In this document: piece after piece, positions 1 to 58,859 of the stretch
Layout of the letters: each line of letters opens with the position of its first letter
How positions within the stretch are numbered: position 1 is the first letter of the stretch
Origin: a virus
Direction: 5' to 3' (one strand)
DNA length: 64,000 nucleotides
Virus record (IMG/VR): IMGVR_UViG_3300046361_000034
Coordinates: 19,006 to 83,005 of that record
The notes under the pieces: model-generated
What the model saw: only the letters and a program-made list of their open reading frames with translations
What the model was told of the DNA's origin: nothing
The model's database searches: none
Translations under genes and position numbers: made by a program

Positions 1-1084
1 AGCAGAAGATAAACTAGATAAAGACCTTCTATTATCTAGTTTTAAAGCAACTAAATTAGATGATAAAGGTAATTTACTAAATGATGCTAATGAAGTAGTT
101 TTAAATGCTACTAAAGTTAAAGCATTTTTAGATAATAATACTTTACCTTTAGATGATAAAGGTAATGTAATTAATGATAAGGGAGAAATTATTAAAACTA
201 AAGAACAAGTTTTAAAAGAAAACTCTGTTGTAGATTACGTACGAAATGCTATTGAAACAAATACTGGTCTTACATTACCTGCTGATTTAGAATTACCAGA
301 TGATGAAACAGGTATTGTTACAATAGTTACTGAATTACTTAAAAGTCAACGACAAACACTTATTCCTAATTTTTTAGATGCTAATCCCGAACTTAAAGGA
401 TTTGCTGAGCATTTAATGTTAGGAGGTACTGCTGAAAATTATTCTAGTTCTAATATAGATTATAAGGCTATTAAGCTAAAAGATTTAGATGATACATCTA
501 AGTTAGGTCTAGTTAGAAAATCTTTTGAAATTCAAGGTAGTCCAAATAGTGAAATGTTACTTGACTTAATCAAAACTGGTGGTGATGATAAAATAAATCA
601 AGCTACTGCTGATGCTATTAAATTTCTTGATGCTAAACAATCCGAAAATAATTCCTTACGTTCTCAACAAGTCGCACAAGCACAAAAAGTAGAGGAACAA
701 CGTGCTGAAATATATTGGGGTAAAGTTCAAGATATAGTTACAAAATCTGGTAAAGTTGGTAATATTGTTATTCCTGTTGTAGATAGAGAAAAATTCTTTG
801 ATTACTTATCTCATCCTATTGATGAGGAATATAATACTGCTGACTATATCAATTCTACTAAAGATTCTGTTGAGTTTAATCTATTAGTTTCATACTTACG
901 CTATAAAGGCGGTGATGTAGGAAAATTAGCTGCATTAGTTGCTCAACAACAACACGTTGAAAATTTACGTTCTCGATTTGATACTCTTAGAGGTCTTACA
1001 AATGGTAACGGTGTACCGCAAACAAGTAATACTAAAGCTAATTCTAAAGGTACTAATTTATCTTTAGAGAATTTAATGGGTTAA
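1..1084 (+). CDS. 5'-truncated conserved crAss-like protein directly upstream of the major capsid gene (putative scaffold/assembly protein)
   Basis: The frame of the listed 416..1084 ORF is open back to position 2 (AEDKLDKDLLLSSFKATKLDDKG...), so the true start lies outside the window. Acidic, helical sequence in the usual portal-to-MCP position. Confidence 0.6.
   Translation, partial: AEDKLDKDLLLSSFKATKLDDKGNLLNDANEVVLNATKVKAFLDNNTLPLDDKGNVINDKGEIIKTKEQVLKENSVVDYVRNAIETNTGLTLPADLELPDDETGIVTIVTELLKSQRQTLIPNFLDANPELKGFAEHLMLGGTAENYSSSNIDYKAIKLKDLDDTSKLGLVRKSFEIQGSPNSEMLLDLIKTGGDDKINQATADAIKFLDAKQSENNSLRSQQVAQAQKVEEQRAEIYWGKVQDIVTKSGKVGNIVIPVVDREKFFDYLSHPIDEEYNTADYINSTKDSVEFNLLVSYLRYKGGDVGKLAALVAQQQHVENLRSRFDTLRGLTNGNGVPQTSNTKANSKGTNLSLENLMG
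890..1030. other. CpG-rich, ~10-11 bp phased DNA patch A (candidate gyrase-type site)
   Basis: About 7 CpG in ~130 bp in a CpG-poor genome; GC clusters near 910, 920, 931, 942, 954. See findings. Confidence 0.3.
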
Positions 1085-1132
1085 AATCAACTAATATTAA
1101 TTTAATTACTAATCAATTTAATCTTAAACATT

Positions 1133-2644
1133 ATGGTAGGTACACCTAACAGCTCTTTTGCACTTCAAAATGGTAATTATGCTAGAATAGTGCAACATGA
1201 ATCTTTTGGAGATGAAGGATATACTAATAATCTTTCTCTTGCTAAAGCTCGTATGACTAATCCTGATAGTCTTAATCCAGTAATTACTCATTTAATGGGT
1301 AATGAATCTAAAAAGTTTCCTTTACTTTATCTTACTGAAGGACAAGTTGGAGGAAATAAGTTTGTTGAAATACAAGATGTTGAGTATGATTGGCCTGTAT
1401 TTGGTAGACTTCGTCGTACTGATGCTGTTGCAGGACATGATTATGCTCCTACAGATAAACCAGGATATGGTGGTCAAGACGTTTATGTTATCTTTAAAAC
1501 TCGTTGGTTAAAATATCAACATAATATTGTATCTCCTAATGGTGTATGGGCACGTATTGTATCACAACCTGAAAAAGTATCTACTGGTTTTAAATATAAA
1601 CTTGACCTTATTAGACAAAATAATGTTACATCTGTACCATTATCTGAATTAAAAACAGGAACTCTTTGGGCAATGTCTGCTGGAGCTAACGTTTCTGAAT
1701 CTTATTCTACTGGTAATGAAAGTAATAAACAATTTCCTGGAAAACTTAAAAACCAAATTGGTATTTTAAGAAAATCTTATGAAATTGGTGGTAATGTTTC
1801 TAATAGAATGACTACATTTCATTTCTCTGTTAATGGTAAAGAAGAGAATTATTATTTACCATTTGAAGAATGGCAACATGAGATGACATTCAAGCAAGAT
1901 TGTGAGGAGTCTTTATGGGAATCTAAATATAATAGAGATGCTCAAGGAAATATTATGAATATTGATCCAGATACTCAACTTCCTATTCCTTATGGTGCTG
2001 GTGTTAAAGATCAAATTCCTAATAGAGATTCTTATGGTGTTCTTACACTAAAGAAACTTAAAATGGTAATTAGTGAAGTTATGTATGGTGCTACTGATTC
2101 TGATAAAATGAATGTAGTTTTATTTACAGGACTTGGTGGTAAAGAAGAATTTTCTAATGCTATTATGAATGAGGCTAGTGGATGGTCTTTATTTCAAGGT
2201 GCTTTAAATAATACTATTACTGGTTCTCCAATGGGATTAGTATTTGGTAATGCATTTACACAATATCGTCATATTGATGGTCATATGGTAACTGTATCTC
2301 ATTTACCTTATCTTGATTTTGGTGGTACTGCACAAAATGCCCCTACTCACCCTATTAGTGGTAAACCAATGACTTCTTATGAAATGCACTTTGTTGATAT
2401 GTCTGTATATGATGGTGTAAATAACCTTCAATTAGTAACTCAAAAAGGTCGTTCTCTTATTAGAGGTATTGAACAAGGTATGACTTTGTTAAAAGGTCTT
2501 AACTATGGTGATTATTCTGGTAACACTATGGATATTAAATTGTCTACTTCTCAAGATAAAACAAGTATTCATTACATGAAAACTCTTGGTGTAGCTATTC
2601 GTAGAAATACACATTGTTTCTCTTTATATTGTACTGCTAGTTAA
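1133..2644 (+). CDS. Major capsid protein (HK97 fold, crAss-like)
   Basis: 503 aa with crAss-type MCP features (FPLLYLTEG, NQIGILRKSY, LFTGLGG, FTQYRHIDGH); followed by a strong terminator; synteny. Confidence 0.88.
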   Translation: MVGTPNSSFALQNGNYARIVQHESFGDEGYTNNLSLAKARMTNPDSLNPVITHLMGNESKKFPLLYLTEGQVGGNKFVEIQDVEYDWPVFGRLRRTDAVAGHDYAPTDKPGYGGQDVYVIFKTRWLKYQHNIVSPNGVWARIVSQPEKVSTGFKYKLDLIRQNNVTSVPLSELKTGTLWAMSAGANVSESYSTGNESNKQFPGKLKNQIGILRKSYEIGGNVSNRMTTFHFSVNGKEENYYLPFEEWQHEMTFKQDCEESLWESKYNRDAQGNIMNIDPDTQLPIPYGAGVKDQIPNRDSYGVLTLKKLKMVISEVMYGATDSDKMNVVLFTGLGGKEEFSNAIMNEASGWSLFQGALNNTITGSPMGLVFGNAFTQYRHIDGHMVTVSHLPYLDFGGTAQNAPTHPISGKPMTSYEMHFVDMSVYDGVNNLQLVTQKGRSLIRGIEQGMTLLKGLNYGDYSGNTMDIKLSTSQDKTSIHYMKTLGVAIRRNTHCFSLYCTAS

Positions 2645-2661
2645 TATAAAGAAACTTATTT

Positions 2662-2696
2662 AGAAAGACTACTTATTATAAGTAGTCTTTCTTTTT
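2662..2696 (+). terminator. Rho-independent terminator after the MCP gene
   Basis: Perfect 14-bp stem agaaagactactta / taagtagtctttct followed by a T-run. Confidence 0.85.
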
Positions 2697-12655: not shown

Positions 12656-12862
12656 ATGAAAAATGTTTTTAAAAATTGGAAAACTACTTCTGCTGGTCTT
12701 TTATTAATCTTAGGTAGTGGTTATTCTCTTGTTCATTCTGTTATGACAGGAACACTTACACAGGAAACTTTTACTTTACAAATAGGAGGAATTCTTGGAG
12801 GACTTGGTTTAATTGCTGGAGCAGATGCTACTACTCCACCTACTACTCCACCTACTACTTAA
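12656..12862 (+). CDS. Holin-like small membrane protein (2 TM)
   Basis: 68 aa, KNWKTT..G start, two hydrophobic segments, upstream of the endolysin. Confidence 0.55.
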   Translation: MKNVFKNWKTTSAGLLLILGSGYSLVHSVMTGTLTQETFTLQIGGILGGLGLIAGADATTPPTTPPTT

Positions 12863-12881
12863 AATTGATTAATTATTAATT

Positions 12882-12910
12882 TAAAGGGTAACTGTAATAG
12901 TTACCCTTTA
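12882..12910 (+). terminator. Hairpin / probable terminator
   Basis: Perfect 12-bp stem taaagggtaact / agttacccttta with AT-rich flanks. Confidence 0.7.
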
Positions 12911-12925
12911 TTAACTTATCTCCCT

Positions 12926-13264
12926 ATGGATTATATTGCTACACTTATACCATTAATAACTGCTATAGTAGGATTTTTAATGGCACGTTTATTTAAAAAA
13001 GATGATAAATCTGATGAAGAAACACAACAGACTTTAAAAGAAGTTAAAGATTTACTTGATACTGTAAATTTAAATCTTAATACTATTAAAATTAATTTAG
13101 AACATACTGTTCATGATACTAGAGAATTACAAAGAGAGAGTAAAACTAGTATTACTAAGGTAAATAATATTGAAAAAGAAGTAGCAATCCTTACTACTAT
13201 TAATAATAGCAGTGTTAAAAGATTGGATTTACTTCAAGATATAGTAACTAAAAGTTTAAAATAA
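12926..13264 (+). CDS. Single-TM coiled-coil lysis protein (holin/antiholin-like)
   Basis: N-terminal TM helix plus heptad-rich tail; directly before the endolysin. Confidence 0.45.
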   Translation: MDYIATLIPLITAIVGFLMARLFKKDDKSDEETQQTLKEVKDLLDTVNLNLNTIKINLEHTVHDTRELQRESKTSITKVNNIEKEVAILTTINNSSVKRLDLLQDIVTKSLK

Positions 13265-13282
13265 TAATTAAAAAATAAAGTT

Positions 13283-13777
13283 ATGACTCCAGAAGAATTT
13301 GTAAAAACATATCTTCCTTTTGCTAAAACAGTTGAGAAGAAAACAGGATTTAGTTATCTTATACCATTAACACAAGGTGCACAAGAAAGTGGTTGGGGTA
13401 AAAAAGCAGTAGGAAATAATTTCTTTGGTATTAAAGATACTGACGGAATAAATGACAATGAACAATTAATAATTACTACTGAATTTTCTAAAAATGGAAA
13501 TTTAAAATTTCCAATTATATTAAGTAAAGTTTTTAGTGGTAAATTATTCAAATACACTATTAAAGATTACTTTAGAAAATATGATTCTGCTGAAATTGCT
13601 TTTACAGATCATATTAATTTCTTTTTAAAAAATCCTAGATATAAAGAAGCAATAAAATATAAACAAGATCCTGATAGATTTTTTATAGAAATTGCTAAAG
13701 CTGGTTATGCAACTGACCCTAATTATGCTACTAATCTAATTGCTGTTAAGAAATCTGTATTAAGACGAATTAAATAA
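13283..13777 (+). CDS. Endolysin, GH73 glucosaminidase (FlgJ-like)
   Basis: QGAQESGWG, NNFFGIK, FRKYDS and GYATDPNYA motifs. Confidence 0.92.
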   Translation: MTPEEFVKTYLPFAKTVEKKTGFSYLIPLTQGAQESGWGKKAVGNNFFGIKDTDGINDNEQLIITTEFSKNGNLKFPIILSKVFSGKLFKYTIKDYFRKYDSAEIAFTDHINFFLKNPRYKEAIKYKQDPDRFFIEIAKAGYATDPNYATNLIAVKKSVLRRIK

Positions 13778-13784
13778 TAAAATT

Positions 13785-14534
13785 ATGATAAACACTAATA
13801 TAAAAAGAGTTATTCAAGTAATAGTAATACTTGTTATTCTAATTTTCTTTTTTCATGCTTGTAAAAATACTATTAAACCAGCAATTATTAATGGTTTAGG
13901 AGGATATACAGATACTGAGTATAAAATACATACTGATACTTTAAAATCTACATTTGATTCTATATACTTTAAGTATGATAGTTTACAAACTGTTATATAT
14001 AGATTAGGTAAACAAAAAGTAATTACTGATTTTAAAACTCAAATAGTATATAAGGATAGAAAAGACACTAACACTAAAGTTTCTTCTAAAGGCAATACAT
14101 CTGCTTTATCCACTTTTTTGACTTCAACCGACACCATTTATGCTAGTGTTTTCGAGCAAGTCAACGCATTTTCAGATACCTTAAACGAGGGAACAGTAAC
14201 AAGTTATGTTAACCCTAGCGACTGTAAAATTATCGCTCAAACCTTGTGTTATAAGCCAAAAAACCCTATACTTGTAAGAGAAACCAAAAATGTAATTACT
14301 ACTAAAGAAACTACATTAACAAATAAACCTAGAGGACTTATAGGATTTGGTGGAGCAATTGATAGTAATAAAAATTTAGGTATTTCTGGTGCATATATGT
14401 TTCCTAATAAGTTACAAATTCAAGGAAGTTATTTATGGAATACAGAAACAAAAAATCCTGTTACTAAAGCTTATCAAAATGAAGCTTTATTTAAAGATAA
14501 AGTTGTAGCAATATCAATCATTAAATTCTTTTAA
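13785..14534 (+). CDS. Putative spanin-like membrane protein
   Basis: N-terminal TM ending in FHAC (possible lipobox); C-terminal amphipathic beta strands ending in Phe; follows the endolysin. Confidence 0.45.
   Translation: MINTNIKRVIQVIVILVILIFFFHACKNTIKPAIINGLGGYTDTEYKIHTDTLKSTFDSIYFKYDSLQTVIYRLGKQKVITDFKTQIVYKDRKDTNTKVSSKGNTSALSTFLTSTDTIYASVFEQVNAFSDTLNEGTVTSYVNPSDCKIIAQTLCYKPKNPILVRETKNVITTKETTLTNKPRGLIGFGGAIDSNKNLGISGAYMFPNKLQIQGSYLWNTETKNPVTKAYQNEALFKDKVVAISIIKFF
14100..14270. other. CpG-rich phased DNA patch B
   Basis: 6 CpG; GC clusters near 14143, 14155, 14166, 14177, 14188 and 14235, 14245, 14256, 14265. Confidence 0.35.
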
Positions 14535-14535
14535 A

Positions 14536-15258
14536 ATGACTACATTAAATCAAATAGCTGAAAATATTGCATATAAATTAGGAGATCAATTTAATCTTAC
14601 TTTACGAGAAAGTATTAAAGATACTGTAATAATTTATAGAGCTAAATTTATTCGTGATGATTTAGATAAAAACTTTTTATCTGAATCACATTTTTCACAA
14701 GTGGGGACTATACAATTTGAAGTAGTTAATTTACTTGAAGAATTTAATGCTGACTTCAGTAATATTTCAGCTATTTGTGCAAATGTAACTAAACAAGATA
14801 AATATAAAATTCTTAGAAGTAAACAATTAATTCCTACTTCTGTAAGAACTAAAGTATCTAGTAGAAACCCTTTTCTATTTCTAGGTAAAGTAGATGGTAG
14901 TAAAAACTTTACATTTACTACATTAGATAAATATTATTATTATCAACATATTCCTTATCAAGAAAATAATATATTTTATATATATTTAAACAATAGAATA
15001 TATATTATTAATAATTTAAACCTTTGTGATATTAATGAATCTTTAAATATTAGTAATGTAATGATTAAAGGAATATTTGAAAATCCTAGAGAACTTTATA
15101 ATGCTTGTGTTAATAATGATACTTATATGGATGATATGCCTTTTCCTATTGGATTAGATATGTTAATGAGTATTACAAATAATATACTTAAAGGAGAATA
15201 TCCTATTAAAGTAAAAGATGGTGAACAAGTAAATATACATCCTGATGATAACGAATAA
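14536..15258 (+). CDS. Putative tail ring protein
   Basis: 240 aa; YIYLNNRIYI...IKGIFENP...D..FPI motifs resemble crAss ring proteins. Confidence 0.55.
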   Translation: MTTLNQIAENIAYKLGDQFNLTLRESIKDTVIIYRAKFIRDDLDKNFLSESHFSQVGTIQFEVVNLLEEFNADFSNISAICANVTKQDKYKILRSKQLIPTSVRTKVSSRNPFLFLGKVDGSKNFTFTTLDKYYYYQHIPYQENNIFYIYLNNRIYIINNLNLCDINESLNISNVMIKGIFENPRELYNACVNNDTYMDDMPFPIGLDMLMSITNNILKGEYPIKVKDGEQVNIHPDDNE

Positions 15259-16012
15259 TACAATGTATGAATTACATGAAGTTAAATTTAATATTGAGTT
15301 AGATATTATTAATAAAGAACTTAAACTTCTTGAAAGAAATAAAAAAAAGTTATTAAGTTATTTTAAACTAATTAGTTTACCTGATAATGTAAATTTTGAA
15401 AATATTGAGTTAGGTAAAGAAAAAGTAATTGATAATCCTACAAGTTCTTATGAAATATTTTATAATGCTAAACTTAAAGATTATAATTCCTCTTGTATTA
15501 TTTATAATAATAAAATAGAAGTTAAAAATTTAATATTACAACATAAAATTAAACCTGTAATATTTAATTATATACTTAATAGATTTAATGAATTACTTAG
15601 TGAAGAAATTATTTATTATAAGTATAAATTTAAAGATTTATTTCTTGGGGGTTTATTACTTATATCTAATAAAAGTCCTAGACCTAGTATTAATTGGAAA
15701 ATTAGTTTAGATAATAAAAAGAAACTTATTGAAGAAGGTAAAATACCTTATCTTAAAAATGATGCTGAAGTAGCTAAACAAAATAATCAAGAATATAATG
15801 GTATTAAATGGCTACATGAGTTTACTGGTTTTAGTTTATTTTTTCAATGGGAGTTAGAGAATAAACAATTTATAAGACTTCCTAATATTAAAAACTTTAC
15901 ATTTGAGCCATATAGAGGTTCTAATAGTCCTGTAAGTAAATTGACTGAATATAAAAATACTCTTACAGAAGCACAACTTACTAACTTTAATACAGAACAT
16001 TATGCTACTTAA
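15245..16012 (+). CDS. Conserved hypothetical protein of the crAss tail module
   Basis: 255-aa ORF overlapping both neighbours; INWK.S...KKKLIEEGK.PY motif. Confidence 0.45.
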   Translation: MITNNTMYELHEVKFNIELDIINKELKLLERNKKKLLSYFKLISLPDNVNFENIELGKEKVIDNPTSSYEIFYNAKLKDYNSSCIIYNNKIEVKNLILQHKIKPVIFNYILNRFNELLSEEIIYYKYKFKDLFLGGLLLISNKSPRPSINWKISLDNKKKLIEEGKIPYLKNDAEVAKQNNQEYNGIKWLHEFTGFSLFFQWELENKQFIRLPNIKNFTFEPYRGSNSPVSKLTEYKNTLTEAQLTNFNTEHYAT

Positions 16013-16679
16013 TCTAATATCCATTAAAGTTGTTATAGGTAGATTTCTTAAAGAGTATAATATAGATGATACTAATTATGTAGATGATCTTCCTCAATGG
16101 ACTCGTGATGCTATTGAAATTATAGGTATTCCTAATTATTTTATTCCTAAACATACTATTAAAAAAATTGAAAGTAATAGATGTTCGTTACCTTGTGATA
16201 TTGAGAACCTTTATGGTATCTGGGTAACTAATTCTACTGATAGAGCACAAACTATTACAGAGTTAGGTAAACTTGAAATTAGAAATAACCCATTAATTGG
16301 TGCAGGAATAAAAAGAGAAACTCCTGAAAGATTTATGTATGGTAATATAAGTGGTAATTTTCTAAATACAAGTTTTTCAAGTGGTTATGTTTATATTGCT
16401 TATAAAGGTTTACCAACAGATTGTGATGGTTATCCTATGGTTCCTAAAGATACTAAATTAAATAATGCTTTACAATATTATTTTATATGGCGTATGGCAT
16501 TATCAGGATATACTCATCCTGTAATATCTCCTAAAGATGCTTTAGCATTGTGGGAAAAAAATTATCCTGCTGCTGCTAACTCAGTTAATTGGATGGATAT
16601 ATCAGAATTACAAGAGTTTACTAATATGTGGACTAATCCAATATTAGGAGATTTACATACTAATAATTATATAGTATAA
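16002..16679 (+). CDS. Tail tubular / ring protein (P22 gp4-like as annotated in crAss phages)
   Basis: LPCD and G.VYIAYKGLPTD.DGYPMVP motifs; immediately upstream of the muzzle gene. Confidence 0.65.
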   Translation: MLLNLISIKVVIGRFLKEYNIDDTNYVDDLPQWTRDAIEIIGIPNYFIPKHTIKKIESNRCSLPCDIENLYGIWVTNSTDRAQTITELGKLEIRNNPLIGAGIKRETPERFMYGNISGNFLNTSFSSGYVYIAYKGLPTDCDGYPMVPKDTKLNNALQYYFIWRMALSGYTHPVISPKDALALWEKNYPAAANSVNWMDISELQEFTNMWTNPILGDLHTNNYIV

Positions 16680-16682
16680 GTT

Positions 16683-19600
16683 ATGGAAGAATTTAATGGA
16701 ATGCATAGAAATAATATTAAAAGTAAAATTCCCACAGGTATGTGGGAATTTGCTCGTAATATACTTATGACAAAAGGTTGGAAATCTATAATGGATGAAG
16801 ATGGGTTTGATCTTAAAGTAACTATTCCTGGACAAATTATTGGAAGAATTGATACAAATGAAGAAGTTATATGTTTTAGTGTTGATGGTATATATTCGTG
16901 TATTGGTATTTATACAGAAATATCAGGAATTGGTCAATATATTCCTAAAATAAGAAGTCTTTATTTAGGTTTTAAAGTTGATAGACCAATTGAAGGAGTA
17001 TTTTTTTATAATTTTAAAAAAGAATTAATTGTTGCTTTTTGTGATGGTGTTTTTGCTGATAGTAATGTACCACGTTTAATTAATCTTACTAATTTTCCTG
17101 TACCTTTAACAGGATTAGAATTAACTAATCCTACTGATGTAGTAAAATTAAATCTATTTTTAGATGCTTTAGATGCTGATATAGATGTAAAATATATAAA
17201 TAATGGTACATTAGAAGCTGATGTTATTTATATAAGTTATAGTTATGTAAGTAATGATTCTTTAACATCTACTGTATTTTTTCCTATTCATGTAGCTACT
17301 TATCCTACTTATAATTTTAGAGAATTAAATAAACGAAATATAGAAGTATTTTTAACTAATTTAGATGCAAGGTATTCTAAACTTAGATTAGGTTTATTAG
17401 TTGTAAAAGATTCTGGATTATTTGGATATCAAAGTGAAGTACTTACTTATTCAGGTACAAGTTATAATACCATTATATCTTCTTTAACAAATTATACTAC
17501 TATAGCTACAGATGAATTAGTTGTTCCTAAGGCTATTTATAGTAGAGTAGAAACTATGACTTTTAATAATAGTGAATTACTTATTGGTCATCTTGTAGGT
17601 ACAGAAGCATTTAAATTTCAAAAATATGCAAATCAATTAGAATTAGAATTAACTTATGATATTAAAAAAGCTAGTGATTTTACTACACCTATGTTATGTC
17701 CTGATGAAGTATATTCTATAACAATATGTCCTCAATTTCTTAATGGCACTTATGGAGAAGAGTATCATATTCCTGGTGTAAAACCTTATGGAGATAATTT
17801 AAATGTATTATCTTCTACAGATATTGATAATCTTGGTCTAAATAGTTTAAATCCTGAAGTGTTTAAAAAATTTAGAATATTTAATACTGGAGGATTTGTT
17901 AATAATACTATACCTATTAGTATTCCTTACAATCCTGCGGAATTTCTTCTTAGATGGGGTTATTGGGAAAACCAAGAAACTTATCCAAATGACAATGAGT
18001 ATAATAGTGGAGTAGATTATGATGGTTCTACTATAGTTGGTGGAGAAGATTTAAGAAGTACTAATATTAGATATCATCGTGTTCCTGGTCTTAATGCCCT
18101 AGTAACAAAATTTCCTTGTATTTTAGGATATGATAATAAGAATGAAGAAAATCCTTTTGGTGATCCCTTAAGTAAATTTAGAGGACTTATTCCTGCATTT
18201 GGAATAAATGTTACTAATTTTAATACTGTTGTTCCTCCTGCTATATTAAATCAAATTCAAGGATATAAATTATCAATAGTTAAAAGAAAAGCAGGAGATT
18301 ATTTAGTTGAAGATATTAATTTTATAAAACAAGCTTTAGCATACAATGCTAGTGGAGTAACAAATATTGATACTGGTGTATCTACTGTATTTGAATCCAC
18401 TATGTATACTAAAATGCCTTCACTTGCTCCTAGTACTCCCCCTTATAATTTATATGCTTGTCAATTTGGTTTTAGTAAAGTAAGAAGTAATACTTTATTT
18501 TCTTATACTCCTAAAATAACTCCTAGAATAATTAAAGCTAATTATGCACTTAGAGATGCTTATGGTCCTGTATCAGGTGTAGTTAGTGCTGAAAATCTAG
18601 ACTATACAAAAGAAGCGACTAGAGGAACTGTTGGAGGAGTATCTGAAGTATCTGCTACAGCTATTCCTAGTTTTTACTTAGTTCCTGATGCTCAAAGATT
18701 TGCTGTGGTTAATGATATTAAATATGTTCCTGAGAATAATCAAGCTGCATTTACTTTATATACTGAAACAGGTATTAATTTATTTTGTCATAATACTCTT
18801 GAGCCATTAATAGGGACACATAAATATCAAAATAATAGATGGAATCCTTTAGGAATAGTTGGTTTTTATGATGGGACAGATGATAGTGGAATACCTGGAA
18901 ACGTATCTATAGATGCTTACGATAGTACTTTAAAAAAATATGATTCTATTAATATATCTGGATTTAAAGTTTTTAGTATAGGACTTAACACTACACTTTT
19001 AAATTTACCTATTAATGTATATGCTGGGTTTAATCCTAAAGATTTTATTGTTTTAGGTAAAAAAACTATAAATAATCCTAATCCTTTTATAAATTGTGGA
19101 GATATATTTACTAATAATTTATATAATGTTGTTACTACTGTAATAATAGGTTTTCAAGTAGGAAATTATAATTTTGCTAGAGTTAAATTTTTTAAATTAG
19201 GTATTAAAGGAGGATTTAGTGTTTGTGCTAATTCTGAAATATATTTAGATAAAGGACAAAAGCAATTAGCCAATACTTATGAGTATCTTGATTCCCCACC
19301 TAATGATATTGATTTATTGAATACTTTTGATTATAAGTTAGAAGTTTTTAATAAAGAAACATTAAGAAGTTTAAATGATATTTTTGTTGGGGTAAGTTTT
19401 AGTATAACTAATATATTTGTAAGTTATTTCCCTTATCGAATACATCGTAGCTTAGTAGTAGCTGATGAAAATTTAACTACTACTGGTATTAGAACTTTTC
19501 TTGCTAATAGTTATAAAGAGATGCTTAATGATAGAGGAGCTATTACTGCATTAAGAGGAACAAATAAAATATTATTTATTCAGCAAAAGTATTCTCTATT

Positions 19601-20756: not shown

Positions 20757-20767
20757 AATTATAGATT

Positions 20768-23092: not shown

Positions 23093-23098
23093 AATATT

Positions 23099-26422: not shown

Positions 26423-26431
26423 ATAATAAAT

Positions 26432-29400
26432 ATGGCATTAAATCCTAACTTTAGAAAAACTGTATCTAGTAAAGATATAGTTTTACCTCCAGATGCATCA
26501 TCTGAAAATCCTCAACAAACTGTTGGGGATTTAGGCGTTCAAATTGGTTCACCTGTTTCAAGTACTTCTCATCCCTTAGAGGACTTAGGAAGTTTAGTAC
26601 AAGGATATGTAGAAACTGGTAAAGAAAAATTACTTAATCTTAACTTAGATGAGTATGCTCCTTATTTTGGTAATAATATCGGAGCCTTTGGTAGCAAAGA
26701 AGACCTTGATAAAAGTAGAGCTTTTAGACAAGGAAGTGGGGAACAATTTCTTAATGCTGCTGGTAGAGTAGCTATTAACGTTGTTCCTGAAATGGTATCA
26801 CAGCTAGCTAATGCTGCTGACTTTGAAGATTACTTTAATTCAGACCAAGAAGTTGGTAACTGGGTTAGTAATGCTATTAATAAATTTGAAGTAGGAGTAG
26901 ATAAAGCTTTACCTATATACAGAGAAAATCCTGATAAACCTTTAGATATAGGTGATAATGCTTGGTGGTTTGAAAATGGTAGTAGTTTAGTTAAATCTGC
27001 TGCTGCATTTGTTGGTGCAGGTTATCTTACTGGTGCTGCTGCAGGCTCACTATTTACTAAAGGCGGAGAAGCTCTTAAATGGCTTAGTACAATGGGTAAA
27101 GAAAGTCAGTTAGCAGATACAGGTAAACAAATTGCTAATGCTGGTGCAACTCTTGCTAATGCAATGATGTTAAATCAGGCTGAAGGTGTTGGTATAGCAA
27201 CCGATCAATTTCAAAAGAGTTATACTAGGGCATCTAATGACCTTAAAGCATCTGAAGAAGGTAAATCTTTAAGTGATGAAGAAATAGATAATCAAGCTAG
27301 AAAGATTGCTGCACAAGAAGCTACATCTGCACTTAACTTTAATAAGATTAATATTCTGTTAAATTTAACTTCTGCTAATATGTTTATGAAAACTTCTTTA
27401 GGTACTAGAAGTTTATTAAATGCTCCTAGTCTTAAACATGGGTTAATAGAACTCGGTAGAGAAGGTGCTCAAGAATATGGAGAAGAAGTTATTAATGATA
27501 TTTCTCAAAATCAAGCTACTGATAAAGATTATAGTTTTCAGAAAGCTATGGAGTACTCAATGACCGCACAAGGTATCGAAAGCGGGTTACTAGGCTTCAT
27601 TGGAGGTGTCGGACAGACCGCCTTAACCAAAGCTGGAAAGTACCTACCTATATATAGCAATCGTGCCTACAATCAAGCGTATGCAAGTCATTATCAAAGT
27701 ATGAAAAACACAGACTTGACTGATATTGAAAAAGATGCTAAAGCTAAAGAACTTGCATTAAGAGATGTAGGTACTAATAAATCTAGAGTTTCTGATAAGT
27801 TTAATGAATCTAGTAGATATACTCAACAACAAAATGCTCTTAACAGGTGGCAGAATTTAGAAAATTCTGATAAAATTGGAGATATATCTAATGCTTTTTC
27901 TACTACTGATGAAATACTAGCTTTACATAAACAAATTGCTGATGCTCATGCTTCAGGAGATGTTGCTAAAGCTAAATCTTTAGAAGAAAGAACATTTGGT
28001 TTACAAGCTAAACAAGCATTTCAAACTGGAACTACTGATGCATTTGAAAAAACATATAAATCTTTTGCTGCTTTAACACATGAAGAAGCTGAAAAGAAAG
28101 ATATATATACAGAAGGAGATGAAAATACACCTAATTATTATAAAACTAGAGCTAATGAAGCAGTTAAAGATATTCAATCTCTAGAAACTATTTATAATAA
28201 TAGTCAAGCATATTTAAATAGTAATGATGTTTATGATATGGAAGAACATAAACATTATACTAATAAAGCTATTAAGTTAAATTTAGAAAATGTAACTAAA
28301 GAATTTAATAATGCTTTAGAATTATATAAAAATAGACCTGAAACTTTACCTAGTAAAACTAATAGTTTTGTAGATTTAAATAGTCCATCTGGTTATGATT
28401 TAAATAAAACTCAACCTAATTTTAAAAAGACTCCTAGCTATAGAAAGATTAAAGCTATGCTAGAAGCTGATAAAATTTATAGAGATAATATAGGAAATAT
28501 ACAAGAAGTTATAGATTTAACAACTTCTAGTAGTTACCAAGAAAAATTAAAAAATGCTATTAATAATAGTAGAAAAGCAGTAGTTAAAGAAAATAAGTTA
28601 AAACAAGTATTTAAGAAAAGATCTGAAAAGAAAAAAGAAATTAATACTTTAGTTAACACCTTAGCTAAACAAGCAAAAACAGAAGTAAATACTAATAGTG
28701 TAGTAGAAGATGTTAATACTATTAATGATGTTATAGAACCTGGAAAAACTTTGCCTGTAGAGAATATTGAAGAAGAATCTGTTGTTACTCCTAAACAAGA
28801 TGAGGTTAAAAAGTCTTTTCCTAGTAAACCTGTATTTGTTAATGTTCCTTCATTTAATGATGCTACTATAAATAACAAATTTATAGAACTTAAAGGTATA
28901 GCTGAGAATCCTGATATATATTTAGAAGATAGTATTGATTATTTAGAAAAATCTATTGATGCTGTTAGAGTAGCAAAAGACTCTAACGCAATCCCTTCTC
29001 TAGAGGCAAACAATGTAGAGATTGGTTTAAATAGTCTTACAGAAGCTCTTAATGATTTAAAAGCACAAAAAGCACAAGAAGTTGTTAAGGCAGATGTACT
29101 TAAAAGTATAGGGCGTCAATTATTAAATTCTATTAATGGAGAAGAAGATATTGATACAAATAATACCGATTCCCCTTCTAAGCAATTTGATAAAGCAAAA
29201 CAACAAAGAGAAATTAATTTATTAATGGATTATCTTAATGTATTAGATAATACAGGAGTAGATATTACAGATTTCAAACAAGTTGTTAATTCATTTGAAA
29301 ACAGTACTTCTAAAGCAGAAGTTATAAAAGCTTTTACTAAACTTAAAGGTCTTTTTATGGCTTATACTGGTCAAGAAGTTGAGGGTAGTTATGCTGAAAT

Positions 29401-38400: not shown

Positions 38401-41400
38401 TTACATTAAAAATCTTTTAGTTAAGTTAGGTGTAGTACCTGATAAAAACTTAAGTGCTGTTTTACATGAAATTATCAATGTTGTAGAATCTCCTAATTTT
38501 CAAGTAGGTAGAGAATTGGTTACTCCTAAATATGTTAGAACTGTTGGTTATCTTAATAATAAGTTTAACTTAACAAACAACACTAACGAATTACGTTCTA
38601 AAGGTAATGCTGAAGAAATAGCAGATTTTATTAATAGAAATATAGTTAATGTAGAGGCTGTTGTTAAAGATAATTTTGTAATACTTACTTCTAAAAAATT
38701 ATATGAAGTAAATGAGGATAACTCTTTTGGTACAGAAGATATACAAGATGAGGGATTTGGTTCTAATCTTGTTAATTACTATCAATCTTTAACTCTTAGA
38801 GTAGCCAAATTAAAAGCTAATATTAAAAAAGCTGTTGAATTAAAAGATTTTGTTAGGGTAGCTGATTTAACAGAAAGATATAATGTAGAAAAAGATAAAT
38901 TAGTTGGTGTTAAAAAAATTACAGCTGCTGTAGATTTAGCTGATAAGGGTGAAGAAGATTTACAAATGATAGAAACTATTTTAAATCGTAAGATGACTTC
39001 TGAAGATATTGTATATGCTAGAGGAGTACTTAACTTTTGGAAAGATGCTAAACGTTTAGTATTTAATGAAAGATTAAATAGTTCTAAGCCTTTAACTAGA
39101 ATTTATGGTGCTATTGAGGGTAGTGCAGAAGCTCTATCAGATAAGTTATTTAAAATTGAGAAAACTTATATGGAAGAGTACATTAAAAAATATACTGACC
39201 AAGATATTAATCTCGATCAACAGTTTAAAGATTATAAAGATATTAATATTATTCAAGCAAATGTTAGAGATATCTCATCTTATGATAATATTTTATTATC
39301 TTCTATTTGGTCATCTGTAAAACATGCTAATATAGCTGCTACTAATGAAGGTAATGAGAAGTTAGAAAGTATAAACAATCAATTAACTAAAGTAGTTCCT
39401 GTATTAAAGTCTTTAGGAAATGCTGAATTATTTGAGGTGTTTAGACAGAAAAATTCTAATGGTAAGTTAACTGGTCATATTATTAATCCTTATACTGATA
39501 TATTTTATAAAGATAGAGCAAAAGTTCTTAAAAAATTAAATAAAGACAATACTCAAACTAATTTTATTAAATATCTTAATTGGATTAATCAATCTGCTTT
39601 TGATGTAGATTTAGAGTCTATTTTTCCTACTACTGGTGAAACAGATGCTACAACAATAGTTAGAGAAGAATTAAAACAAAAGTTAGGAGCAGGTGTTTAT
39701 AGTTTTTGGTTTAAAAATCAAAAGAATAAAATAGATTCTTATAATGACCATAAGTTTGGACAAACTCAATCATTATTAGCTAAGTATAAATTAGCATCTG
39801 AACAAGATATTCTTAATAGTGATGAGGCTAATAGAGAATATAAATTTTGGATAGAAAAAAATAGCCCATACAGATTAGCTAAATATGCTTTCCAAGATAA
39901 TATTAAATTATCTTCTGAATTTGGTTATACCTCACAAAAATATTATGAAGTTATTCCTAAGGATTCTGAGTACTTAGATAGTAATTATGATACTATTTCT
40001 AATAATCCTGAATTGTTAGAGTTTTATAATACTATAACAGATTTGTTTAAAGATTTAAAGAAATATGTACCTGAAAGTCAACAAAAAACTTTAGCTTATG
40101 GTGGTGTTCCTTCTCTTGAGAAATCTATTGTAGAATTATATACTGAACATGGTATGCAATTAGGAGTATTACCTATTCAAGATATATGGACTAAATCAAT
40201 GCAAAGTAGTTTTGGTGATAATACCTCAACTATTATTGACCCTGTTACTAATAGACCTATAAATGAAATGCGTATTCCTATTATTAAAGATAACTATAAA
40301 GAAGTTCAAAAATATATTAAACAAAAATCTGCTGAGTATTTAATAGAAAATAATAAAGCACCTAGTGCTGACATTATTAAAGGATTTGAAGAAGATATTA
40401 TTAATGAAATATCAGAAGGTAAATCATTTGATTTAGGTAAAATTGCTAAAGTTTATACTGCATTAGTATTAGCCCATAAACATAAATCTAAAATAGAAGA
40501 TAGTGTTAAAATTGCAAATACTGTTTTAAACAAATATGAGGAAACTAGATTAAGACCTGATGGTACTCCAGAAACAGATGCCATGACTGGTGCTATTCAA
40601 AGAAAAGGAGCTGATCAATCATTTGGTAATATTAAATCTGCTTATGAGTCTTACATAAATAATGTATTTTATGGGGATATTCATGAAGAAGAAGGTAAAG
40701 GTAAAAAATCTTTAACTAAATCTGAAAAATTAGAAAAAGCTAAATTATTAGGTTTACTTAATCAATTAGAAGTTCAACATGATAATAAACTTATAGAGGA
40801 TGAATTATATAAAAGTACTAAAGATAACTTAACTGAACAACTTGGTAATCTTGGTAAAACATTTATATATTCTAAAGCTGGAGATAATGTTCTTAAATAT
40901 GTACAATTAAAGTTAATGGGTTGGAATGTATTAGGCGGTATTAGTAATATGGGTTTTGGTTGGCTCTCGAATCAAATAGAAGCCGCAGGTGGACAGTTTT
41001 TTAATAAAGCTGATTTAGCCTATGCCTACAAATTATCGTTGCACTCAATCACTAAAAATGCGTCATTTAATAAACTAGAAACTGATACTGCTAGAAAGAT
41101 ACGAGAAGGTATGGATAAATGGGACATATTAAAAGATGCATCACATGAGCTTTATACCTCTAGCACTCCTAGTAGTTTTGATAGTAAATTAAAGTTTCTT
41201 AAACCCTTTAATGTAAATCAACGTACAGAATATTTGAATCAAGCACCATTATTTATTGCATTATCTCGTAATACTATGGTAGATACAACTAAAGGAAAAA
41301 TTTCTTTATGGGATGGTTTTGATAAAGATTGGAATTGGAATGAAGCTGAATATGGTGCAGAACCTACAGAAGTTATTAATAAAATGAGAATTAAATTAGA

Positions 41401-43262: not shown

Positions 43263-43817
43263 TTAATTAGTTTTAAGTTTATAAATATAGTTATTAAAAT
43301 TAGTATGTGTATCAATAGTAGGAACAAATCTCCAATAATCCTCTACTCGTATAAAGTAATTGTTATGATTATAAGTTGTACCATTAGATAAATTAGTTTT
43401 AACTTCTAATTGAAGTTTATCAGTAGTTATAATAGGTAAAGAATAATAATAATCTTTAACTTCCTCTAACTGTTCAGTAATACCAGTTTTATAAGTATTA
43501 GTAAATTGAATCATAAGTAAAAAGATTAATAAAGCTAATTGTTCTTTATTACTCTCTCCATATAAAAATAGTTTAAATAATTCTTTAACCTCATGTATAT
43601 TAACTTGAGTTTGCTTTTCTTTAGGAATTACATCTAATACTCGTTTCTGAATATCTTGTATAATAAAATCAGGATAAAGAGGTAAACTTTGTAAAAGAAT
43701 ATTTACAATATCTGCTACTTCAAGTACGTGAAATCTATCATATATTGTATCGCCTTCTTGTGTTCGTGCTCTTTCTAATGCAGAAAATATTATAGCTTGT
43801 AATTTTTCATATTCCAT
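43263..43817 (-). CDS. Hypothetical protein
   Basis: 184-aa ORF tightly packed in the operon. Confidence 0.6.
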   Translation of the reverse strand: MEYEKLQAIIFSALERARTQEGDTIYDRFHVLEVADIVNILLQSLPLYPDFIIQDIQKRVLDVIPKEKQTQVNIHEVKELFKLFLYGESNKEQLALLIFLLMIQFTNTYKTGITEQLEEVKDYYYSLPIITTDKLQLEVKTNLSNGTTYNHNNYFIRVEDYWRFVPTIDTHTNFNNYIYKLKTN

Positions 43818-44842
43818 TATAGAGATATTATTTCTTTAAATATAAGTTCACGAGTTGTAGTATCCATAAGATTATTTTTAAATTTACTGTCAGCAGTTCT
43901 ATACTCTTTAGTGTTTTGTAGATAACCAGTAATACCATTAAATAATCCCCAACCTGTACCAATAAGTCCTTCTTGTCCTACACCTATATTATAATAAGTC
44001 CAAGCAGCCTCAAGAATATTTTTACCTTTAGTTGAAAGATTACCATATTTATCATCTGGTACTTTTAATACTTTTTGCATAATAGTTTTGGCTTCATCAT
44101 CTGTAACAGGTACTCTAGCAATATGAGAAAATGCTTCTTGATATGCAAGAGTTTGTTGGTCAACAATACCTAGTACTTTTTTAGATTGTTCTAGTTTATC
44201 ATTGGCAGAAGATGTGTGACGTATTACTACTCTATTACTTTTTGCCTGTAGAGCCATACTTAGTGTGTTGTTGCATACAACCCTAATTGGTGTAAACATT
44301 ACAACAATACTACTACTACCATCATGTGACATAGTAAGTAATAAGTATTTATCAATTTGGTCATTATTAATAACCATTTCGGCTTTTAGTTTACAAGTAA
44401 TAAATATAGTTTCACCGTTACCTAATGCACCTACTGTTTCATATTCAGCATATCTTTCTCCTACTATACTATCAATAAATTCAAATGCTTCGTGGTTTTG
44501 AATTACATGATACTTACTACCAACTATTCCTAAAGGCAAACCATTGTCAGTTCTCACAGTAGCAAACTTATCCTCAAACAACTCAATTCCTCTATATGTA
44601 GGTTTATTATCAATAAACTCTCTTGATATATGAGTCCGTTGTTTAGCTTCTTCAAAATCAAAAGTTTTAGTTCCTTGTACATATAAAGGCTGTTTATCAA
44701 CAATAAAATTTAATCCCCCAAGTTCAATAGCCTCTTTAGAAGTCATAGCTTCAACTACTGTACCTAATCCATGCCAAGCAGGTTCTTTACGGGTTACAAA
44801 TGATGCTATTCCGTTACGTCTAATGTTTAAAGTATGTGCCAT
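43817..44842 (-). CDS. DUF932 family phage/plasmid protein
   Basis: PAWHGLG, LGIVGSKY.VIQN.EAF.F, SHDGS, TPIRVVCNNTL and IRHT motifs. Confidence 0.9.
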   Translation of the reverse strand: MAHTLNIRRNGIASFVTRKEPAWHGLGTVVEAMTSKEAIELGGLNFIVDKQPLYVQGTKTFDFEEAKQRTHISREFIDNKPTYRGIELFEDKFATVRTDNGLPLGIVGSKYHVIQNHEAFEFIDSIVGERYAEYETVGALGNGETIFITCKLKAEMVINNDQIDKYLLLTMSHDGSSSIVVMFTPIRVVCNNTLSMALQAKSNRVVIRHTSSANDKLEQSKKVLGIVDQQTLAYQEAFSHIARVPVTDDEAKTIMQKVLKVPDDKYGNLSTKGKNILEAAWTYYNIGVGQEGLIGTGWGLFNGITGYLQNTKEYRTADSKFKNNLMDTTTRELIFKEIISL

Positions 44843-50074: not shown

Positions 50075-50185
50075 AATTTGACGTATTTTAAGGCGATTTG
50101 CCAAGTTAAAAATTGATTTTTGTAGGTAGATACCTTTGCCTATAAAAGATAGATTGTGGGAGTTTTATGTGCTTTATCGACTAGA
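50075..50185. other. Intergenic phased DNA patch E with palindromic core AGGTAGATACCT
   Basis: GC clusters every ~10.5 bp on both sides of core 50124-50135, separated by A/T tracts. Confidence 0.4.
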
Positions 50186-56734: not shown

Positions 56735-56770
56735 AATATTTTAATGTTTAAGATTAATAAATGATTTAAA

Positions 56771-57688
56771 TTAATTTTTAATAATAGATTCTTCTAATGA
56801 ATCTGTAATTGTATATTTAATATTAGCTTCATCAGCTAATTCAGATACACTATATATACCAAAAAGTATATCTGCTGCAATTTCTTTACTACCAATTCCA
56901 TATGCTCTTGCATCACACATAGAATGAGGATATTTAATCCAATTATCTTTATCAGCAAGTCCAGCTTGAACTGCATCAGACATTTTAAATTCAGAGGTAA
57001 CTTTCATTTCTTTGTATGTACCATCCTCTTGTCTGAATTTTCTAATAAATTCATATTTAGTTATTCTATCAACAACTTTTAATTTTGCTACACTACCATT
57101 AATAACTTTAGGAGGAGTATCTTCTGTACCTAATCCTGCAATAGTAGGAACTTTTTTAATTTGCCCGTCAACTGATATTTCTTTAGTTATCCATGCACCA
57201 TCTTCTCCAACTTTACCCCATTCATATATAGGTTCGTAATTATAGATTTTATTAGATATTACACCTTTATTAAGAAGTAAACCTCTTTGTAAATGTATTG
57301 ACATTGTAGGTTTATTGTTAATAGGAAATATACAAGATATACTAGTCATAAAATGAAAACCAAATTGTTGCCCAGTAAGTATTGCTAAAGTAATATCAGC
57401 CTCTGTTTTTAAAGGAGATAGTTTACTAGTTTTAATATGTTTTGCTAAGTAAGTAATAGATTCTAATGCTCTAGCAGCTTGAATAACTTGTTCAAAACCG
57501 CTATTAGGAGTTTGTAGAACAGGAGTAGTAGGTATAAAAGATTGTAATTGGTTACTTTTTTCTACTACTCCTTGAGTTTCTAATTCTTCTGATATTACTG
57601 AAACATTCTCACTAGTTTCATTATTATCTTGTTCTACATTTTCTTCTGATACTTTATCAATAGTATCTTCTTTAAGTTCTTCTTGCAT
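56771..57688 (-). CDS. RecT/Redbeta-like single-strand annealing protein
   Basis: AILTG...G, I..INNKPT and F.M.DA..AGL..KDNW.KYP..M..ARA...DIL.G.YS..EL. Confidence 0.75.
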   Translation of the reverse strand: MQEELKEDTIDKVSEENVEQDNNETSENVSVISEELETQGVVEKSNQLQSFIPTTPVLQTPNSGFEQVIQAARALESITYLAKHIKTSKLSPLKTEADITLAILTGQQFGFHFMTSISCIFPINNKPTMSIHLQRGLLLNKGVISNKIYNYEPIYEWGKVGEDGAWITKEISVDGQIKKVPTIAGLGTEDTPPKVINGSVAKLKVVDRITKYEFIRKFRQEDGTYKEMKVTSEFKMSDAVQAGLADKDNWIKYPHSMCDARAYGIGSKEIAADILFGIYSVSELADEANIKYTITDSLEESIIKN

Positions 57689-57760
57689 AAGAATTAAAAG
57701 TATTTATTATTTGATACATCAATATAAATTGATTGCCTTGTATCTATCTTAATGATAGAG

Positions 57761-57792
57761 CAAAAGTAAAACAATATTTTGATATACACAAA
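57761..57792 (-). promoter_or_regulatory. Bacteroidota sigma70 promoter (-33/-7)
   Basis: Minus strand TTTG-N20-TACTTTTG, an exact consensus match, intergenic and ~70 bp upstream of the RecT-like gene. Confidence 0.8.
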
Positions 57793-57833
57793 CTTTTAGA
57801 TTAAAATTTACAATTTATACCTATATATATATG

Positions 57834-58859
57834 TTACTTTTTTACTAACTTACTTTCAGGTTCAAATTGTGTTAATTGTCCTCTATGAAACTCGTTTTTG
57901 AGCCATATAGAGCCTACTTTACCAAAACGTTGTTTTAGTATTTGTAGGTGTACTAAACCGCTGGTAATGAGCTTATTTAACCCGTATTCGAGGATTCCTA
58001 ATAATTCGGGTTGATGTATTGTTAATACAATATCACAAGCATTGTATAATTGACCTTGTGCATATATATCAGACTTAATAGGAAAATGTAATGTAGCATT
58101 TTTAATTCTTTCAGCTTTTTCAATTTCTCCATTAAATTGTCCAACTAATATAACCATATATCCTCGTTTTTTAAGATATATAGCATTTTTAGCAATTATT
58201 GTCATAACATCAATAACACTTTCACCTTTACCAGCATTAACTAATAGTGTATGATCTATTGCAATAACAAATTTAGGTTTAGGGTCAGTATCAGTTTTAT
58301 TATATTTTTTCTTATAATATTCATAAGATAGAGTAATATTATCAAATATACCAGCCATATTAGTAGGCTCATCAAAATAATAATGATCAATATCTTCATT
58401 TTCATCTAAAGCATCACTAATAGCTTGAAATTCTAAATCTGATATTTGATTATATTTACCTTGTTCAGAATTAAATTCAGCACTTAATAAATTAAGACTA
58501 GATTTTTGTACTTTAGTACTAATACTTCTCAATACTTCATCAACAGGAAGCATTTCAAAAGAATTATGTACTATAACAACATCTTCTTTAAAATCATGAT
58601 TAAGTCGTTTATTAGTAAAATCAGATAAAATCATATTAAGAATAGCAGATTTCCCATGACCAGATAATCCAGATATAAGAATAACTTTACCAAATCTAAA
58701 AAATTTACCTACTGCAATATTAAGTTTACTAAATCTTGTTATTAATCCTAATTGTTTTCTACTTCTTTCTTGATTAACAATTTCTTTAGCTTCAGTATTA
58801 ACATCTTTAATAGTTTTTAATATAGGTACATAATCTTTATCTTTTTTATTAGAACTCAT
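57834..58859 (-). CDS. DnaB-like (SF4) replicative helicase
   Basis: Walker A GLSGHGKS, SFEM, AIDH, QFNGEIE, SDIY....L...CD and LKQRFG. Confidence 0.88.
   Translation of the reverse strand: MSSNKKDKDYVPILKTIKDVNTEAKEIVNQERSRKQLGLITRFSKLNIAVGKFFRFGKVILISGLSGHGKSAILNMILSDFTNKRLNHDFKEDVVIVHNSFEMLPVDEVLRSISTKVQKSSLNLLSAEFNSEQGKYNQISDLEFQAISDALDENEDIDHYYFDEPTNMAGIFDNITLSYEYYKKKYNKTDTDPKPKFVIAIDHTLLVNAGKGESVIDVMTIIAKNAIYLKKRGYMVILVGQFNGEIEKAERIKNATLHFPIKSDIYAQGQLYNACDIVLTIHQPELLGILEYGLNKLITSGLVHLQILKQRFGKVGSIWLKNEFHRGQLTQFEPESKLVKK
57885..58020. other. CpG-rich phased DNA patch F
   Basis: 6 CpG in ~130 bp; core tttgtaggt at 57941 (acctacaaa on the minus strand, as in patch E). Confidence 0.3.

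Follow-up and report, generated by a model that had tools for sequence, protein, structure and literature searches.

Possible DNA-level bend or wrap sites in silent-position G/C islands of a divergent crAss-like phage genome

The phage genome recorded in IMG/VR as IMGVR_UViG_3300046361_000034 (hereafter G000) is a single contig of 83,005 bp, and the window considered here is the stretch of 64,000 nucleotides formed by its bases 19006-83005. Judged by the signature structural genes found in it, G000 is a divergent crAss-like phage (Crassvirales). Its codons almost always end in A or T, and this habit is broken by five short in-frame islands in which codons ending in G or C abound. Three of these islands are found again at homologous codons of distant relatives (35-65% protein identity) while their letters turn over, and in a pooled set of islands the silent G/C tends to recur about once per helical turn. 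Tentatively, we read the islands as possible bend or wrap sites that act at the level of the DNA and are written into silent positions, a reading drawn from sequence. A first-pass annotation of the window had proposed a DNA-level signal of this kind in synonymous positions, and this appears to be so considering the conserved position, the turnover of letters, the equal rise of C- and G-ending codons and the pooled phasing.

The islands stand out against an extreme background. The window has a G+C content of 27.0% and a CpG observed/expected ratio of 0.256, and the share of G000 codons ending in G or C is 6.5% when ATG and TGG are set aside (8.8% with them), with C at 3.4% and G at 3.2% of third positions. 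Islands were called by log-odds segmentation of G/C-ending codons into in-frame runs at a score threshold of 12, which returned five runs of 105-213 bp with G or C at 32-49% of third codon positions (GC3); they are referred to as A to E (Table 1). Counted in windows of 47 codons, G/C-ending codons average 4.0 (standard deviation 2.4) and reach 15-22 at five places. The runs are outliers when compared with 200 within-gene synonymous shuffles, in which runs scoring at least 12 number 0.48 on average and three at most, and in which the best score averages 11.8 and never exceeds 18.8, against a best observed score of 28.8. Inside the islands NNC codons climb to 37% from 7.6% and NNG codons to 31% from 6.9%, so that the C- and G-ending classes rise alike, and the ratio of A to T at third positions is 44:56 against 33:67, which makes the silent sites look near unbiased. 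Their GC skew lies between -0.25 and +0.36 and is not consistent in sign, and no purine or pyrimidine bias of the sense strand was detected in them.

It should be noted that the first-pass annotation had approached these places through CpG. Its counts agree with ours in six intervals (7, 6, 7, 5, 3, and 6), and the five intragenic patches are the only 140-bp windows of the 64-kb stretch with at least five CpG. As statistical outliers, however, the CpG clusters do not hold up, with seven in the genome and a maximum of 7 CpG where clusters in the 200 shuffles average 6.4 in number and the highest CpG count averages 6.4, although synonymous shuffling raises total CpG from 419 to 503, which partly explains the number of clusters in the shuffled sequences. 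The excess of rare codons claimed for the same patches is real in four of the five intragenic ones (18, 22, 17, and 15 G/C-ending codons per 47) and does not extend to the cluster at 890-1030, which is no GC3 outlier. What is unusual is the silent-site G/C, and CpG is secondary. The patches were also said to fall in unrelated coding contexts, which is mistaken for islands C and D, both of which lie in the gene of one 5234-aa protein. Short palindromes are strongly avoided in G000 as well (observed/expected 0.12 for TCGA, 0.27 for GATC, 0.11 for GGCC, 0.14 for CCGG, and 0.18 for GCGC, with CGCG absent); the depletion of TCGA extends to each of the six genomes that we compared (0.10-0.18) and that of GATC to five of them, G004 being the exception (0.93). 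This shortage looks like restriction avoidance and would account for part of the CpG deficit.

Profile-based locus searches supplied the relatives, namely 79 IMG/VR loci, the five whole genomes G001-G005 and 24 metagenome loci with TerL. A megablast search of 4 kb against a phage collection and single-protein locus searches in IMG/VR gave no match. Comparison at the DNA level covers these five genomes and another 17 TerL loci, and the relatives on contigs of 80-87 kb enter as proteins only. When the GC3 excess of the five other genomes is mapped onto the codons of G000 by pairwise alignment of the proteins, the top three peaks coincide with B (z 12.5), C (z 10.1), and A (z 8.5), with E ranking twelfth and both D and the 890-1030 cluster lying outside the top 25. 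The same segmentation calls island C in G001 (score 35.9) and G002 (25.8), where the runs overlap that of G000 with different G/C positions, and a codon-level Fisher test in G001 gives 13/59 G/C-ending codons in the island against a fraction of 0.023 elsewhere (p 2e-9). Island B scores 21.9 in G001 and 16.7 in G002, with 16/68 codons where the rest of the gene has 0.000 (p 2e-9) and 16/56 where it has 0.049 (p 8e-6), respectively. Island A scores 20.8 in G003 (p 3e-6), and its homologous codons are enriched in five of 23 TerL genes, those of G000 (22/45), L114 (18/45), L119 (18/45), G003 (17/44), and L123 (13/40). The remaining 18 TerL genes are without it, including lineages of intermediate distance (60-65% identity), while the carriers comprise the G000 clade (76% and 73%), G003 (55%), and L123 (44%).

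The other two islands are less widely shared. Over the same end of the helicase, island E has counterparts in L008/G005 (34/111 codons) and L065 (21/45), and tested codon by codon it is enriched in G003 (9/38, p 0.02) and G005 (10/39, p 0.046) and unenriched in G001, G002, and G004. Island D is for the most part peculiar to G000, being enriched in one of four relatives, with counts of 2/47 in G001, 1/46 in G002, 2/46 in G003, and 9/46 in G004 (p 0.006). The codons homologous to the 890-1030 cluster are enriched in none of the five relatives (0/47, 3/45, 7/47, 4/42, and 1/44), and this cluster is outside the class of GC3 islands. The intergenic stretch at 50075-50185 is weakly raised in G/C, and its membership of the class is doubtful. 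An exonuclease-like gene upstream of TerL, orthologous to genome positions 12710-13669, holds a GC3 island in G001 (61376-61414) and in G002 (38264-38371) and none in G000.

What is kept in these spans is composition rather than sequence. In codon alignments the G/C-ending codons vary among genomes inside the same span of 45-70 codons, and nucleotide identity within the TerL island is close to the gene mean (0.733 vs. 0.759, and 0.741 vs. 0.733), its identity to L114, L119, G003, and G001 ranking 535, 368, 622, and 751 among 857 windows. Protein identity to the relatives compared is 35-76% and the background equilibrium is 3-10% GC3; at such divergence a neutral patch would have decayed, which argues that something keeps adding silent G/C in these spans. 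The recurrence of islands at homologous codons while letters turn over likewise points to a composition that is actively maintained. The same two observations rule out recent foreign DNA as their source. An artefact of assembly or polishing, or a chimera, is also ruled out, given that Logan contigs agree letter for letter with G000 at islands B and C (13000-27090 and 27080-29000, no differences, depth ~42) and that a 205-nt contig from a different sample (X4) covers 27596-27800, part of island C, with nine differences. The Logan assembly was made separately from the deposited one, from what is probably the source run, and is therefore not biologically independent, so that the truly independent sequence support is the one 205-nt contig.

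Table 1. Silent-position G/C islands of G000 and two further stretches (coordinates are those of the window unless marked as genome)
Feature	Gene or context	Coordinates	Strand	G/C-ending codons	CpG	Score	Remark
Island A	TerL	genome 16014-16148		22/45			2.9 kb upstream of the window
Island B	249-aa protein, mid-gene, between the endolysin gene and tail ring protein 2	14052..14264	+	24/71		23.1	
Island C	5234-aa virion RNA-polymerase fusion protein, codons 369-429	27539..27718	+	26/60	7	25-26	
Island D	5234-aa protein, codons 4826-4877	40910..41062	+	18/51	5	13.4	
Island E	341-aa DnaB-like helicase, codons ~283-322	57891..58010	-	15/40	6	14.4	spans KQRFGKVGS motif
CpG cluster	near 3' end of 446-aa gene upstream of the major capsid gene	890..1030	+		7		no GC3 run
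Intergenic stretch	between two minus-strand genes	50075..50185	-		3		GC 0.315; CCTACAA and GGTATC in flanking-gene sense

The arrangement of the silent G/C along the helix was assessed with amino acids fixed and G/C status permuted among exchangeable codons, in a pooled set of 24 islands of 93-333 bp that represent six genomes and three loci. In the band of 10-11.5 bp the mean power lies above all 1000 permutations (z 4.3; range z 4.3-5.2), with an excess of z 2.8 for G000 alone, z 3.4 for the other genomes and z 1.9 without the B and E groups. The neighbouring bands at 7-8.5 and 13-16 bp hold much less excess or none, and 358 control windows of coding sequence with similar GC3, taken from G/C-richer relatives, have a mean z of -0.60. 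Silent G/C is periodic by itself (z 3.1) and is also in phase with the G/C of codon positions 1 and 2, the cross term being positive in 19 of the 24 islands (combined z 4.2) and negative in the controls (mean z -0.67). Silent G/C that is both periodic and in register with fixed positions has the look of a periodic G/C wave on the duplex, and codon rarity alone does not predict it. Among stretches of G000 tested singly, island B has a period of ~11 bp (p 0.005; p 0.026 in G001 and p 0.13 in G002), island E one of 9.7 bp (p 0.014), and the intergenic stretch one of 11.1 bp (phase shuffles, p 0.001), whereas neither the 890-1030 cluster nor island D has significant periodicity. In total three of seven G000 stretches are significant, or two of six with the amino-acid sequence fixed. 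The G/C clusters every ~10-11 bp reported in the first-pass annotation are thus borne out when the 24 islands are pooled, but not for most islands taken one at a time.

If the islands are indeed bend or wrap sites, their silent positions would be held G/C-rich by a force acting on the double helix and not on the protein or the RNA fold. Silent G/C that comes up roughly once in every helical turn and keeps step with the G/C dictated by the amino acids would give alternating G/C-rich and A/T-rich faces, and such DNA would bend preferentially one way and could lie on the surface of a protein. The reader would be a DNA-bending or DNA-wrapping protein, with host DNA gyrase and a phage protein of weak HU/IHF-like character (genome 11305-11742) as candidates, and binding would serve topology, compaction or packaging. 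That a protein binds, which protein it is and what its binding does are points that we infer only. The length of the islands and their phased G/C resemble the published gyrase motif, which makes the gyrase idea of the first-pass annotation a fair one; gyrase may be the reader, though no result singles it out. A more ambitious version seems distinctly doubtful to us, in which the islands would be docking sites and the DNA-wrapping machine that docks there (host gyrase or the HU/IHF-like protein) would split the 83 kb into domains of ~13-22 kb, with a use in supercoiling, in compaction or in ordered packaging. Were it true, phage genes would carry a conserved structural DNA code atop the protein code.

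The phage candidate is a 145-aa protein encoded upstream of the window in a locus listed as L001; it belongs to a family of 37 representatives, and its N-terminal half weakly resembles HU/IHF. The crAss-like phages are reported to share an IHF-like gene thought to help in DNA compaction (PMC7886860), and the 145-aa protein may be a diverged form of it. In its predicted structure (pLDDT 87) long helices take the place of the HU beta arms.

Several observations weigh against a DNA-level reading. Homologous islands are not independent samples, and with one island per homologous group the pooled z drops to 2.1. The pooled spectrum peaks at 9.75-10 and at 11.25-11.5 bp and dips at 10.5-10.75 bp (z -0.4 to 1.7). 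Singly significant periodicity is confined to four of 11 islands (B and E of G000, B of G001 and one of G004), with A, C, and D not significant, and A and C are among the strongest islands. Amino-acid composition is unshifted, G/C at codon positions 1 and 2 being 0.435 in carriers of the TerL island and 0.429 in non-carriers, and the choice of CTA and CTT over TTA, which raises G/C, is unenriched in islands (p 0.62). As for a reader encoded by the phage, 57 protein queries against Pfam brought up no topoisomerase, and the 145-aa protein reaches an E value of 0.006 in Pfam, which is below the cut-off, 0.0014 in a profile search against PDB, and 0.5-1 in Foldseek, where the top matches are all HU and the best stands at 0.48. 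No such island occurs in the cultured Flavobacterium phage Fpv20, whose GC3 is equally low (8.1%) and whose CpG observed/expected ratio is 0.08. Lastly, the rarer A-ending codons are enriched over T-ending ones in islands (61:77 vs. 9566:19445, p 0.006), which fits selection for codon rarity.

This last point leads to a second explanation, that the islands are conserved clusters of rare codons which slow ribosomes at defined points of the protein, in the service of co-translational folding or assembly, and in which rarity is kept and identity is not. We regard this as possible, though on balance unlikely. Every G/C-ending codon is rare in G000, ATA shows a trend over ATT in islands (p 0.07) alongside the A-ending excess, and carriers have unchanged amino-acid composition. 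Position is kept while codon identity varies in islands A, B, and C, partly in E and not in D, which is the pattern described earlier for rare-codon clusters (PMC5438181). The protein contexts differ greatly, however, from a catalytic motif of the helicase to the indel-rich middle of the 249-aa protein; islands C and E coincide with the most conserved protein motifs, A moderately so and B not at all. Codon rarity also does not predict a 10-11.5-bp period of silent G/C that keeps step with codon positions 1 and 2, for which the controls have the opposite sign, and the slowness of these codons is itself an assumption.

A third explanation, which we hold to be unlikely, sees in the islands the footprints of repair or recombination that drive silent sites off their A/T equilibrium, whether as co-conversion tracts, as recoded targets of homing endonucleases or inteins, as a G/C-biased repair hot spot or through error-prone repair at a fixed nick. 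The patchy TerL island, present at 76%, 73%, 55%, and 44% identity and absent at 60-65%, would suit such a history, as would the near-unbiased silent sites, and there is a precedent in MobE of phage T4 (PMC2790892). Homing endonucleases are also common in the wider group. Fpv20 (L138, L139), which is 26% identical at TerL, is annotated with five genes for homing or HNH endonucleases, and its DNA polymerase gene is split by one of them. Yet no endonuclease gene was found adjoining an island, identity is not raised inside the TerL island so that a donor tract is not apparent, the protein with island B is weakly conserved, and helical phasing is predicted by neither repair nor conversion. In particular, target sites of inteins or endonucleases find no support. 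The two inteins found in TerL relatives sit at residues ~208 in P0209 and ~350 in cr53_1, away from the TerL island (residues 625-669), and at both of these places G000 is without an island. Among the 120 TerL homologues listed, one is longer than 800 residues, and no helicase homologue of 598-2000 residues was found, which is weak evidence. P0209, a freshwater TerL relative of 1087 aa (LAGLIDADG family), has its insert at the KGY|SYKNGW motif, and the annotated TerL of cr53_1 (L140, NC_055889.1), in which 13 in-frame TAG codons are read through as Gln, has an intein-sized insert after a GTGG motif. As for a diversity-generating retroelement, no reverse transcriptase appeared among the 57 Pfam queries, a search in which the middle of the 5234-aa protein was unscanned and a template repeat was not specifically sought.

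The first-pass annotation had further noted an even spacing of ~13.3 kb, from which one could propose arrayed sites that split the genome into topological or packaging domains of equal size. We consider such a function improbable. The spacing is numerically correct within the window, where CpG clusters are centred at 961, 14181, 27613, 40997, and 57959, with gaps of 13220, 13432, 13384, and 16962 bp. Four consecutive clusters with gaps within 212 bp of one another have a nominal p of 0.0005 for five random points per 64 kb and of 0.001 for seven points per 83 kb, and the five GC3 islands are over-dispersed on a circle of 82.86 kb (smallest gap p 0.0014, coefficient of variation p 0.003), however, these probabilities were computed after the pattern had been seen. 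Two further CpG clusters upstream, centred at genome positions 9928 and 16114, break the even series. Nor is the spacing a feature of the lineage, considering that the 890-1030 member of the series is no GC3 island and is enriched in no relative, that D is enriched in just one, and that strong islands occur in G001 at C, B, and gene 22 only and in G002 at these three and one more place, neither set being even. The distance from B to C is conserved (13.4 to 14.1 kb), but this follows from conserved gene order.

A role in the messenger RNA, with locally stable or processing-resistant G/C-rich segments that slow RNases or mark cleavage points, is very improbable. The absolute folding energies of islands are much below those of the A/U-rich flanks (e.g., -30 kcal/mol for 135-150 nt), and islands A and E and the 890-1030 cluster lie in the last fifth of their gene, upstream of the next one. 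Against this, none of 16 folds (eight stretches, both strands) surpasses its dinucleotide shuffles beyond z -1.95, the range being -1.95 to +1.25 with -0.34 and -1.20 for the two strands of the intergenic stretch, and consensus folds are weak, those of A and B being negligible (-0.6 to -5 kcal/mol) and that of C equal on both strands. Searches of Rfam and for tRNAs returned no match, and the sense strand lacks a purine or pyrimidine bias. With folds no better than shuffles and these searches empty, a structured RNA, a tRNA or a known RNA family is ruled out. Hidden overlapping genes are rejected on the grounds that off-frame open stretches over the islands are just 20-65 codons long and inconsistent, and C-rich RNA of the Rho-binding type or the G-skew of an R-loop on the grounds of inconsistent skew.

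Shared words add little to this picture. The RCCTA core that the first-pass annotation had seen in four patches (aagtacctacct, gcctacaaa, and acctacaaa twice) is present, but CCTACAA is absent from the homologous islands of G001-G003. In G000 it occurs in four of the five islands, in the coding sense and with two copies in each of two frames (p 0.003 against phase shuffles, 0.013 against codon-order shuffles). Over the whole window its 12 matches compare with 7.5 expected and are equalled in seven of 100 shuffles, so it is not over-represented. As a shared island motif CCTACAA is suggestive only. ACCGCC, with four of its five genome copies in islands, and GGTATC are probably by-products of the G/C and CpG enrichment. 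TCGA was rejected as a marker as it occurs once in each of six stretches but in 19 other, scattered copies, and no word of nine or more bases is common to several islands.

The major capsid protein of G000 has a best identity of 36.5% to a described crAss-like phage (cr271_1), TerL matches 151 records, mostly of crAss-like and Flavobacterium phages, the two tail ring proteins match CrAss_Ring_1 (1e-28) and CrAss_Ring_2 (8e-19) of Pfam, and the virion RNA polymerase is housed in the one 5234-aa gene. The first 100 bases of the contig reappear exactly near its end (1-145 vs. 82861-83005) and the following 45 differ at eight positions; this looks like the assembly overlap of a genome with a variant end, which is probably a closed circle or has a terminal repeat. 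Thirteen public runs, all labelled freshwater metagenome, contain part of the genome, and one of them contains the whole of it. The helicase with island E matches DnaB_C of Pfam (E 8e-10) and has 155 homologues in a large protein collection, the best 70% identical and many on contigs of 80-87 kb. Downstream of it, the gene at 56771-57688 matches families of RecT-like annealing proteins (PHROGs, 6e-7), and a 341-aa gene at 43817-44842 has a DUF932 domain (8e-56). The 249-aa protein (13785-14534), which follows the endolysin gene, has a hydrophobic N-terminal segment that ends in Cys in G000 and a conserved C-terminal part that ends in Phe, and the middle segment with island B is poorly conserved and indel-rich. 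It has no Pfam or PHROGs match and may be a lysis-associated or outer-membrane protein.

Where silent positions are almost fixed as A or T, a second signal that needs G/C stands out, and its maintenance becomes readable from the sequence. If the islands are DNA-level sites, a signal of the bendability type would be conserved inside phage coding genes while its letters turn over, and B and C in three genomes and the TerL island in five would offer targets for studying the packing or the topological handling of a crAss-like genome. If they are rare-codon clusters, they would be unusually clean natural examples of candidates for translational pausing. A literature search for such islands in phages found none described.

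Known systems resemble the islands in part. The free-standing endonuclease MobE of phage T4 and nrdB provide a case of intronless homing with co-conversion (PMC2790892). The likeness lies in short altered tracts within conserved phage genes and in the abundance of endonuclease genes in related phages, and the difference in the lack of any endonuclease, intein or intron at or beside the islands and of a donor-like rise in identity. A second parallel is with the position-specific conserved clusters of rare codons among homologues reported by Chaney et al. (2017; PMC5438181). These too consist of rare synonymous codons whose position is conserved and whose identity is not, within rather than between conserved regions, whereas the islands have a contrast of 32-49% to 6.5% G/C-ending codons and a helical periodicity in register with non-silent G/C.

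On the side of the DNA, nucleosome-positioning sequences are ~150 bp long, carry G/C and A/T dinucleotides phased at ~10 bp and are read by bendability and not by base contacts. The islands are like them in length and helix-phased composition, and unlike them in that the candidate for a phage wrapper is here only weakly HU/IHF-like. The gyrase motif of E. coli found by Topo-Seq, taken here together with the strong gyrase sites of Mu, pSC101, and pBR322, is itself likened to these sequences; the motif is degenerate and 130 bp long, with G/C phased at 10.75 bp in two arms, and is interpreted by its authors as DNA on a protein surface (PMC6379681). It differs from the islands in a 10.75-bp period that falls where the pooled spectrum dips, in the one site of phage Mu against several here, and in its host, the one here being not E. 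coli. Its likeness to them is in length (~130 bp vs. 105-213 bp), in phased G/C in place of fixed letters and in being carried by a phage, Mu. Overall, the islands, their function unproven, appear to combine known kinds, the conserved cluster of codon usage and the phased site for wrapping DNA.

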